NCBI GenBank assembly: GCA_965243285.1 | Contig: OZ251537.1 | Coordinates: 570,387-634,386 of the forward strand | Reading direction: 5' to 3' | Source: Candidatus Poriferihabitaceae bacterium | GTDB taxonomy: Bacteria > Pseudomonadota > Gammaproteobacteria > Arenicellales > Poriferihabitantaceae | DNA length: 64,000 bases | Shown here: positions 27,845 through 28,076 of the stretch, one piece after another | Numbering within the stretch: the first letter of the stretch is position 1 | How the letters are laid out: each line of letters begins with the position of its first letter | The notes under the pieces: model-generated | Database searches by the model: none | Told to the model about the DNA's origin: nothing | Seen by the model: the letters and a program-made list of their open reading frames with translations, nothing else | Program-made: the position numbers and the translations under genes

Positions 27845-28076
27845 CGGTTTTCGGCAATTTTGGCGTGGATTTGATGCGACTTTGGCGCGATTTCTGCGAT
27901 TTCCAGTCTGATTTTGGCAATTTTGATGCGGTTTTCGCGATTTCGACGGTTTTCTCCAGATTTCGGTGATTTTGCTGTGATTCTGTCGATTTTGACGCAG
28001 TTTTCGTGATTTCAGGATGGATTTCAGTGATTTTGGCGCGATTTTCGTGATTTCGGGGCAGATTTCGGCGATTTTT
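27845..28076. repeat. long phased A/T-tract array (~25 units, 9-12 bp period)
   Basis: ...GCGATTTCTGCGATTTCCAGTCTGATTTTGGCAATTTTGATGCGGTTTTCGCGATTTCGACGGTTTTCTCCAGATTTCGGTGATTTTGCTGTGATTCTGTCGATTTTGACGCAGTTTTCGTGATTTCAGG... immediately upstream of the 26055-27767 gene. Confidence 0.8.

Follow-up and report, generated by a model that had tools for sequence, protein, structure and literature searches.

In this work, we analyzed a stretch of 64 kb (hereafter, the window) from Candidatus Poriferihabitaceae bacterium, probably a sponge symbiont (assembly GCA_965243285.1, contig OZ251537.1, positions 570,387-634,386 of the forward strand), and describe six arrays of short, degenerate direct repeats that lie in its intergenic DNA. 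The units of these arrays recur every 10.1-10.4 bp, about once per turn of the double helix, and combine a conserved core, R-A-T-T-Y, with a GC-rich spacer that varies freely. The arrays are predicted to be curved, were gained recently in this lineage and have no features of mobile elements. Our preferred explanation, which we hold tentatively and at somewhat short of an even chance, is that they are locally duplicated, lineage-specific minisatellites held in helical phase and acting as curved architectural DNA. That the phase is maintained by selection and not by descent, and that the arrays have any cellular function, is what we infer.

Results

Six intergenic arrays with a period of one helical turn

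The whole window was subjected to a blind spectral scan, in which all four bases were analyzed in sliding 80-bp windows for periods between 4 and 24 bp. Six arrays made up the entire 10-11 bp class:

14741-14850: about 9-10 units of AAATT(T/C) plus 4-5 bases, in the spacer between the convergent GH3 (NagZ-like) and AcrB-like genes.
25945-26045: about nine units, GGATT(C/T) plus GGG/GGCC on the minus strand, in the spacer between the co-directional 570-aa protein and DUF3726 genes.
27845-28076 (main array), T-rich strand plus: 23 units of (G)ATTT(T/C) plus a GC-rich spacer, between rnpB and the start of the 570-aa protein gene, both on the minus strand.
30591-30725: about 11 units, (G)GATTC/AAATT(C/T) plus spacer, with a period of 10.40 bp, between the convergent LysR-type and FMN-reductase genes.
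35940-36035: about nine units, (C)TGGAATTCA / GGATT(C/T) on the minus strand, in the spacer between the co-directional GT2 and DUF2064 genes.
42711-42800: the weakest array, about 6-7 units of GAATC/GATTT/GAATTT plus spacer, in a convergent spacer, starting from the stop codon of a DAO/GcvT-domain gene.

The scan thereby recovered the coordinates that a preliminary description of this DNA had given for the six arrays. All other strongly periodic intergenic regions had a period of 6-6.5 bp, and the few further spectral peaks, of various periods, fell within genes or at gene edges. Lowering the threshold and shortening the windows added only weak matches, all of them within coding sequence. In the AA/TT spectrum, the main array peaked at 10.25 bp, a height that none of 200 dinucleotide shuffles attained, and its refined period was 10.10 bp (half-maximum range 9.95-10.25). 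The peaks at the other five sites (those beginning near 14740, 25940, 30600, 35935 and 42715) lay at 10.0-10.5 bp, with 0-1 of 200 shuffles as high, so that the 10-11 bp periodicity proposed in the preliminary description exceeds shuffled controls at every one of the six sites. The refined periods of the six arrays were 10.10, 10.15, 10.10, 10.40, 10.20 and 10.10 bp.

Arrays with at least five copies fell only into the 6-6.5 bp and the 10-10.4 bp classes, apart from 12-bp double-hexamer repeats and one 12/24-bp repeat within DUF3726 coding sequence; T-tract arrays with periods of 7-9 or 13-14 bp and at least five copies were absent from the window. The pair correlation of AA/TT over the whole window peaked at 11.6-11.7 bp whether or not the six arrays were masked and is uninformative on the 10-bp class; the 12-bp harmonic of the hexamer arrays is one possible cause of this peak.

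The arrays range in length from 90 to 232 bp and are all intergenic, three of them in convergent spacers (14741, 30591 and 42711) and three in co-directional ones (25945, 27845 and 35940). Array 14741-14850 occupies almost the whole of its 140-bp spacer, array 25945 begins about 10-15 bp past the stop codon of the 570-aa protein gene, with about 540 bp of hexamer arrays between it and the DUF3726 gene, and array 30591-30725 runs over the final codons of the FMN-reductase open reading frame. The main array sits 78 bp upstream of the start of the 570-aa protein gene. Homology to DUF2064 begins at residue 21-22 of the longest open reading frame, which places array 35940 upstream of the real start and outside the gene. 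The placement described earlier, upstream of genes (27845 for the gene at 26055-27767, 35940 for the DUF2064 gene) as well as between convergent genes in three cases, was thus confirmed. At most two of the six arrays, however, lie directly upstream of a gene start as an UP element would, and the T-type strand is the sense strand at 25945 and the antisense strand at 27845 and 35940, with no constant relation to flanking transcription.

A conserved core, a drifting spacer and growth by duplication

In the main array, the core (G)ATTT(T/C), sometimes replaced by GTTTT or AATTTT, is followed by 3-8 mostly G/C bases, the same form of unit (a GC-rich stretch plus (G)ATTT(T/C)) that had been described before, although the number of units is about 23 and not the roughly 25 then given. 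The successive spacings are 10, 12, 11, 10, 9, 12, 9, 11, 9, 9, 11, 9, 11, 9, 11, 9, 12, 9, 11, 9, 12, 9 and 9 bp; they mostly alternate 9 with 11-12 bp, which yields a 20-21 bp dimer, and a 41-bp higher-order repeat is present in addition. Accordingly, the self-match of the main array has peaks at lags 20 (z = 6.5) and 41 (z = 6.2) relative to dinucleotide shuffles.

With the units aligned on their T run, R-A-T-T-Y emerged as the core common to all six arrays, always followed by a variable GC-rich spacer. Both within and between arrays, the information is concentrated in the core columns (G/A-A-T-T-T/C), at 1.1-2.0 bits; most columns of the spacer, with roughly 0.1-0.8 bits in the five larger arrays, are close to saturation. 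Every array favors a particular version of the core, namely GATTTY in 27845, AAATTY in 14741, GGATT(C/T) in 25945 and 30591, GGAATTC in 35940 and GAATC/GATTT in 42711. When the sequences were folded at the period of each array, the AT fraction was 0-0.3 on one helical face and 0.9-1.0 on the opposite one. Furthermore, A-then-T steps (AATT/ATTT/AAAT) outnumber TTAA/TTTA/TAAA by 67 to 11 in the arrays, the corresponding ratio being 1.6:1 over the window as a whole and about 1:1 for the hexamer regions. The A/T tracts are therefore helically phased, as had been claimed from the first inspection of the sequence, and their cores are of the bend type. The period is shared in spite of different mixes of unit lengths, 9 with 11-12 bp in the main array and 10 and 11 bp in the others.

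The arrays also retain traces of how they grew. Tandem Repeats Finder (TRF) reported periods of 10, 11, 20, 31 and 41 in them, self-match lags were 10, 20, 31 and 41, and neighboring exact duplicates (CTGGAATTCA, GGATTTGGGT and GGATTCAGGC, each twice) are present. The TRF periods of 20, 31 and 41 together with these duplicates point to growth by tandem duplication of blocks of one to four units. When 22 units of the main array were placed in random order, the observed phase coherence was reached in 2.5% of trials, which indicates that the alternation of 9 and 11-12 bp keeps the array in register. The units match each other at 64-80% of positions, and the comparison of array with array gave no match at E < 0.01. 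Hence, the earlier statement that the sequences are not recent copies of one another applies between arrays but not fully within them, where exact duplicates occur. Only the five-base core is common to the arrays, which cannot be aligned with each other, in agreement with the former view that they are not a specific operator.

Predicted curvature

DNA trajectories were derived from three dinucleotide wedge sets, AA-wedge, Bolshoy-Trifonov and De Santis, and their absolute values are indicative only. In all three models, array 14741-14850 had the top predicted curvature in the window, 21-24 degrees per turn, which none of 300 shuffles reached in any model, and the main array lay at about the 99.9th percentile. 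The predicted curvature of both arrays (each at or above the 99.87th percentile) is on a par with that of a synthetic A5N5/A5N6 control. Depending on the model, the remaining four fall between the 94th and the 99.85th percentile, and in the AA-wedge and De Santis models each of the six is more compact than about 99% of its own dinucleotide shuffles. By comparison, the hexamer arrays and a 15-bp repeat of the window (see below) are predicted to be straight. The intrinsic curvature proposed in the preliminary description is thus strongly predicted for 14741 and 27845 and lies above background in two of the three models for the remaining arrays; for 25945 and 42711, an excess in the Bolshoy model was not obtained.

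Curvature is produced by A-then-T polarity, and the reference value for the helical repeat is 10.5 bp. According to Hagerman, AnTn reportedly bends DNA and TnAn does not. The period of the arrays, 10.1-10.4 bp, is slightly under 10.5, so that over 230 bp the path would be superhelical rather than planar.

Comparison with relatives

The 570-aa protein is 100% identical to one database protein; its next best matches share 70-73% identity with it, and most of them are encoded in metagenome-assembled genomes that are sponge-associated and carry the labels Ca. Poriferihabitaceae, Arenicellales or Gammaproteobacteria. Synteny with the window was seen in three of their loci (L001, L002 and L010) and extends over no fewer than six genes and rnpB, with eight to ten genes in the case of L001 and L002. 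The gene order DUF1127, rnpB, 570-aa protein, DUF3726 is kept in L001 and L002, and rnpB is found just upstream of the 570-aa protein gene also in L003, L004 and L010.

The spacers that hold arrays in the window are expanded relative to these loci. The distance from rnpB to the 570-aa protein gene is 540 bp here, compared with about 90 bp in L002, 55-75 bp in L001, L003 and L004 and roughly 300 bp in L010. The 570-aa protein and DUF3726 genes are separated by 664 bp in the window (25391-26054), overlap by 4 bp in L201 and L202 and lie 6-134 bp apart in 13 other loci. The GT2 and DUF2064 genes, about 300 bp apart here (35757-36060), abut or overlap in L001, L002 and L010. At these sites, the spacers of the window, of about 300-660 bp, are filled with phased arrays and hexamer arrays. 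The OTC/ASS spacer, the one divergent promoter-bearing spacer with a usable comparison, is of similar length in both genomes, 115 bp here and about 139 bp in L002. Judged by gene arrangement, the putative operon junctions 570-aa protein/DUF3726 and GT2/DUF2064 are split in this lineage.

With the detector that had been used on the window, the strict threshold yielded a single array of the class across 1.42 Mb of related loci, compared with six in the 64 kb window; with a looser threshold, 13 arrays were found in the related loci, most of them within coding sequence. TRF arrays cover 4.45% of the window and 0.52% of the related loci, where the repeats have other periods. The detector counts, the TRF coverage and the spacer lengths indicate that the arrays were recently gained in this lineage. 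Gene calling based on GC3, a crude procedure, gave similarly low values of coding density in the window and in the relatives and supports no conclusion on coding density.

One related locus, L021, carries a phased A-tract array with a period of about 10 bp at 8786-8930 (equivalent to 7001-7160 of L018), which reads CAAATTCATT GAAAATCGCCT AAATTCGTCG AATTCCCATG GAAAATCG and so on. A strong sigma-70-like promoter, TTTACA-17 bp-TAAAAT, follows this array immediately downstream, which is the classical order of curved DNA and promoter and a placement of the UP-element type. Phased A/T arrays are thus present, though rare, in this family. Since L018 and L021 are 97.7% identical over 17.8 kb and hence belong to the same species, the array that they share has no power as a test of conservation.

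Searches for known elements

Several known types of element were considered for the arrays and rejected. No terminal inverted repeats, hairpins or shared flanks surround the six arrays as they would a mobile element; the inverted-repeat search of the arrays detected nothing beyond the self-complementarity of AAATTT cores, and the flanks have only hexamer repeats in common. An Rfam scan of the whole window returned rnpB as the only known RNA, and no tRNAs were found in the window. A coding function is at odds with a period that is not a multiple of three. Around the main array there is no sigma-70-like promoter site, and the two terminator-like matches near it are at chance level. An origin in a plasmid or phage was likewise discarded, as the main array had no match in plasmid and phage collections in the sensitive 'distant' mode of blastn.

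Iterons and centromere repeats of the ParR type were rejected because only a five-base core is kept and no replication or partition gene is adjacent; the only partition genes, parA and parB (59.8-61.5 kb), have no array within 15 kb, and a search of the window for parS was negative. As regards a replication origin, the DnaA box (TTATCCACA) occurs 17 times in the window when up to one mismatch is allowed, in no case in or beside an array. A link to restriction-modification was also considered, given that GANTC/GAATTC sites are frequent in some arrays and that an EcoRI-like methylase fragment is encoded in the window, but these sites are not common to all arrays.

Finally, metagenomes were scanned for the pattern GATTTY at a spacing of 9/11-12 bp, which gave at least 120 mixed matches consisting of AT-rich coding repeats, a probably eukaryotic family of miniature inverted-repeat transposable elements (MITEs) and short promoter-proximal repeats; among the matches listed for this pattern there was no GC-rich bacterial counterpart. 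Two groups of matches are described here in their own right. The first is a dispersed family of about 300-400 bp on contigs of 40% GC (Ga0058701, Ga0268247 and others; loci L088, L090, L097, L107, L110, L111, L130, L132, L137, L146, L152, L159, L162, L167, L174, L187 and L195), whose terminal inverted repeats (GAGGGGCCAATTACTCTTTTGGGGCTTGTACAC ... AGTAGTTTGCCCCTC) flank a body of degenerate GGATTTCAGG arrays with a repeat of about 10 bp. In addition, 5-bp repeat arrays occur on several of the longer contigs. Because L152 and L174 (13-15 kb), the longest two of the contigs inspected, contain no open reading frame of more than 150 aa, a eukaryotic origin of the family is probable. This GGATTTCAGG family is an analogue and not a relative of the arrays in the window. 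The second group (L083, L096, L100, L115, L119, L127, L134, L164, L172 and L183) comprises two to five direct copies of TGATTTCACCGATTTT plus 4-6 bases, with a period of 20-21 bp, on contigs of about 37-48% GC, mostly near 43%, and is unrelated to the window. The sequence context suggests that in several contigs these repeats lie just upstream of gene starts, and they may represent the site array of a regulator.

Surroundings of the arrays

The main array belongs to a compact intergenic region with the following neighboring features:

26055-27767, minus strand: conserved gene of the 570-aa protein; the main array lies upstream of it.
28075-28168: hexamer array (TTGCTG)x16, of the 6-6.5 bp class and predicted straight, which directly continues the main array.
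28186-28217: GC hairpin resembling repetitive extragenic palindromic (REP) elements, CACTCCCCCC-loop-GGGGGAGTG, at 110 bp from the main array; the window has four such copies in total.
28307-28663, minus strand: rnpB (RNase P RNA, bacterial class A; Rfam RF00010, 330 bits).

On the minus strand, the order is thus rnpB, the GC hairpin (28186-28217), (CAGCAA)x16, the 232-bp array and the 570-aa protein gene, and rnpB itself is located between the DUF1127 gene and the main array. The 570-aa protein has no Pfam or NCBIfam family match; its homologues with E <= 1e-50 number 7,999 and are spread across Proteobacteria, and the DUF3726 gene follows it in every relative checked for this neighbor (about 15 loci).

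The window contains 22 hexamer arrays, all predicted straight. They adjoin three of the six phased arrays, and the main array merges into (TTGCTG)n. The phased arrays had been presented as a distinct class; this is correct as to the period, yet the contact with hexamer arrays in three of six cases, and the continuity in that of the main array, blur the distinction, and both classes probably share an origin.

Four copies of the REP-like GC hairpin, (G/C)ACTCCCCCC-loop-GGGGGGAGT, occur at 12449-12480, 12923-12954, 28186-28217 and 62585-62616, with none expected by chance, and every copy is embedded in hexamer arrays. The copy at 28186 is not followed by a U-tract and was therefore not called a terminator; the T-rich array to its left and the A-rich array to its right form an imperfect palindrome of 42 nt around it. 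Elsewhere, too, T-type arrays tend to lie to the left of A-type arrays (12120-12327 and 12368-13044; 36762-36832 and 37024-37179).

Further tandem repeats were noted. The site at 50026-50085, which the preliminary description had counted as 17-bp units of the phased class, is in fact a 15-bp tandem repeat, GGGTGAATTTTAGTG, with 3.7 copies and 97% matches at 50024-50078; it is not helically phased and is predicted straight, and it begins one base past the start codon of the gene of a 1478-aa Type ISP restriction-modification enzyme (45587-50023, minus strand). Downstream of this gene, a 12-bp repeat, GTGGCTTTTGAT, is present in 13.7 copies with 92% matches (45216-45379) and, unlike the hexamer arrays, is predicted to be moderately curved (about the 98.5th percentile). 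Four copies of a 24-bp repeat, TCGATGCCAGATTCGGTGCCAGGG, lie at 24966-25060 within the DUF3726 coding sequence and probably encode an 8-residue protein repeat.

At a larger scale, four low-GC islands carry restriction-modification or defense genes: 4372-5526 (GmrSD/HNH), 22881-23498 (a truncated EcoRI-like adenine methylase), 38332-39758 (an N6/N4 methylase and a MvaI/BcnI-type nuclease) and 45587-50023 (the Type ISP enzyme); several of them are flanked by hexamer arrays. The grouping of rsmG (gidB), parA and parB at 58918-61514 suggests that the window is near the replication origin. Besides, a non-coding region of 1.37 kb with 41-43% GC (5527-6898) has three same-strand DnaA-box-like sites with one mismatch each (5587, 5650 and 5925).

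Discussion

The explanation that we prefer, albeit tentatively, starts from degenerate minisatellites that would have expanded within intergenic spacers as blocks of one to four units were duplicated in tandem, the R-A-T-T-Y core being held in helix register every 10.1-10.4 bp and the GC-rich spacer drifting freely. The narrow-minor-groove A/T steps on one helical face and the G/C bases on the other would confer intrinsic curvature with one preferred direction of bending. The arrays would act, if at all, through the mechanics of the DNA, as a curved or easily wrapped spacer at gene boundaries, possibly by favoring proteins that read DNA shape (nucleoid proteins, gyrase) or by absorbing supercoiling between transcription units; they would not be operators, RNAs or mobile elements. 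This explanation is favored by (i) the same one-turn period despite different unit sequences and length mixes, (ii) the preservation of the core while the spacers are near saturation, (iii) the bend-type polarity of the core, (iv) the lack of T-tract arrays of intermediate period, (v) the curvature predicted for the arrays, and (vi) the phased array upstream of a promoter in L021. A class of repeats in C. elegans (PATCs, see below) offers a eukaryotic precedent, which the arrays resemble.

Several observations weigh against it. First, no rule of strand or position relative to genes unites the six arrays. Second, the curvature values rest on wedge parameters of indicative value, and in the Bolshoy model only array 14741 is clearly beyond its shuffles; p is about 0.07 for 27845, and 25945 and 42711 were reached by 45 and 65 of 300 shuffles, respectively, which is not significant. 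Third, the 22 straight hexamer arrays show that repeat proliferation in this DNA needs no curvature, and the alternation of 9 and 12 bp in the main array also follows simply from amplification of a 20-21 bp dimer. In addition, syntenic relatives have no such arrays in the corresponding spacers (the rnpB/570-aa protein spacer was examined in L001-L004), which argues that there is no conserved need for curved DNA at those sites, and two of the arrays split junctions that relatives keep as overlapping operon junctions. Lastly, the evidence comes from one 64 kb window of one genome; the databases contain neither a second strain nor a close relative, and the 570-aa protein is found on a single contig in the collections.

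Many of these points would be expected if the arrays were the product of neutral or selfish proliferation, the main rival explanation, which we consider possible, though not probable. The arrays would then be decaying tandem repeats that arose through strand slippage or template switching in a symbiont whose genome accommodates additional intergenic DNA, their curvature would be a useless by-product, and both the period and the A/T core would have been inherited from one family of units related to the T-tract hexamers. The gain of the arrays in this lineage only, including at operon junctions, where insertion is likelier to be tolerated than needed, fits this scenario well, and so do the excess of repeats in the window over the 1.42 Mb of related loci, the absence of a positional or strand rule, and the ongoing duplication that is evident from the higher-order repeats and the exact neighboring copies. 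The contact of three of the six arrays with hexamer arrays, with the main one merging into its neighbor, and the presence of units such as GATTTTGGC in hexamer-type arrays as well (e.g. 36762-36832) are also as expected for a common family. Uniform decay, however, should have eroded cores and spacers alike, yet R-A-T-T-Y was kept, and six arrays with different mixes of unit lengths arrived at the same mean of 10.1-10.4 bp. Moreover, the spread of one family would have to be explained without alignable sequence, a common flank or a mobile feature, and no T-tract arrays at 7-9 or 13-14 bp with at least five copies were seen.

It is tempting to speculate on a broader version of the architectural explanation, in which the arrays would be a bacterial counterpart of the periodic An/Tn clusters (PATCs) of Caenorhabditis elegans, although we regard it as unlikely. 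Proliferating minisatellites would have been shaped to a 10.2-bp A/T-G/C phase by selection or by structure-dependent mutation bias and would serve throughout the genome as mechanical elements at gene boundaries. Their phase, which resembles that of nucleosome-positioning DNA, could offer preferred wrapping sites to gyrase or a chromatin-like protein, or the arrays could act as topological insulators that uncouple neighboring units, including genes that are translationally coupled in relatives.

Less likely still, the arrays could be binding sites of a dedicated protein that reads G-A-T-T-Y from one face of the helix and polymerizes along the DNA or wraps it, in the manner of iteron or ParR systems. 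A five-base core that is kept while the spacers vary is the expected architecture of such a site array, and the one-turn spacing would present all sites on the same face. Nevertheless, the core changes from array to array (GATTTY, AAATTY, GGATTC, GGAATTC, GAATC) and, at about 7 bits, has too little information to be recognized specifically. Beside the arrays there is no gene for replication or DNA binding, parA/parB are distant and parS was not found, six sites in 64 kb, three of them convergent, are ill-suited to a centromere or an origin, and the main array has no plasmid or phage similarity.

Very improbable, in our judgment, is that the arrays are remnants or inner parts of small mobile elements of the MITE, REP or bacterial interspersed mosaic element (BIME) type. 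The metagenomic GGATTTCAGG family illustrates that such arrays can travel inside mobile elements, and one of the four REP-like hairpins among the hexamer arrays is 110 bp from the main array; four of the six arrays, however, have no hairpin nearby, and all six lack terminal inverted repeats, hairpins and conserved flanks of their own and do not match one another at E < 0.01. A role at the RNA level, as GGA/GGAU protein-sponge RNAs, Rho-loading sites or untranslated-region elements, is scarcely credible: several arrays adjoin stop codons and would hence be transcribed as 3' ends, the plus-strand transcript of 14741-14850 is C-rich, G-poor and Rho-loading-like, and GGAT motifs recur in 30591-30725, but the orientation of the arrays to transcription is inconsistent, three of them are convergent, Rfam matches no family other than rnpB, and a one-turn period pertains to the double helix of DNA rather than to RNA.

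Comparison with known systems

The physics of curvature by phased A/T tracts and the occurrence of curved DNA at bacterial gene boundaries have long been known. Bent DNA with phased A-tracts is exemplified by the bend of kinetoplast minicircles and by synthetic A5-6N5 repeats. The arrays resemble it in having A/T tracts of 3-6 bp once per turn over 9-23 turns, with A-then-T junctions. They differ from it in that the tracts are short (mostly ATTT, AATT and ATTC instead of A5-6), the spacing alternates between 9/12 or 10/11 bp, and the curvature is predicted.

Enterobacterial REP and BIME elements, which occupy convergent spacers and operon 3' ends, bind gyrase and integration host factor (IHF); REPs are palindromic hairpins of conserved sequence that are mobilized by RAYT transposases. 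Like them, the arrays are small, abundant intergenic elements at gene ends and in convergent spacers, and a link to supercoiling and DNA wrapping is plausible for both. Unlike them, the arrays are direct repeats without dyad symmetry or a conserved sequence.

With bacterial minisatellites (variable number tandem repeats), the arrays share short head-to-tail units, an exclusively intergenic and lineage-specific occurrence and growth by duplication, but they are degenerate, combine a conserved core with a free spacer and are helically phased. In a few prokaryotes, among them Methanococcus voltae and Natrialba magadii, intergenic DNA is greatly enriched in tandem repeats of 6-11 bp (PMC4060949).

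Prokaryotes also show, as a statistical feature, an excess of predicted curved DNA at promoters and terminators (PMC4060949; PMC3431218), and the groups of Bolshoy and Mrazek described short chromosomal segments with strong 10-11 bp A-tract periodicity, as summarized in the same two articles. The arrays are similar to these cases in being curved intergenic DNA upstream and downstream of genes and in their strong periodicity over short segments. In contrast to those weak statistical signals, however, they are discrete, number up to 23 units and are lacking in relatives; their period of about 10.2 bp also differs from the roughly 11 bp that is typical of bacteria. In the literature searched, we found no description of discrete, long, degenerate, helix-phased arrays across the intergenic DNA of one bacterial lineage, recently gained beside unphased repeats. 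In bacteria, phased A-tract curvature is mostly known from weak statistical signals or from single bends that precede promoters; here it takes the form of discrete, long and visibly repetitive arrays. Since these were gained recently and repeatedly in one lineage, next to an unphased class of repeats, they constitute a natural experiment on whether selection can act on nothing but the mechanics of DNA in the intergenic regions of bacteria, a question that dates from the first description of the 10-11 bp periodicity of prokaryotes. If the phasing was not selected, the arrays would be a clear case of satellite-like DNA that accumulates in a host-associated bacterium and splits its operons; if it was, they would be a prokaryotic parallel to the PATCs of C. 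elegans.

PATCs derive from Helitron minisatellites that converged on a 10-bp periodicity, and they have been proposed to act as mechanical insulators of chromatin, by the mechanics of their DNA and not by a specific sequence motif (bioRxiv 10.64898/2026.08.08.743475). The arrays differ from them in being bacterial, without nucleosomes, in their length of 90-232 bp, which contrasts with the extended tracts of PATCs, and in having no transposon parent that could be found, their setting being a chromosome with rnpB, parAB and housekeeping genes. What both have in common is a minisatellite-like and degenerate organization with an A/T periodicity of about 10 bp, that is, a periodic signal laid over drifting non-coding sequence.

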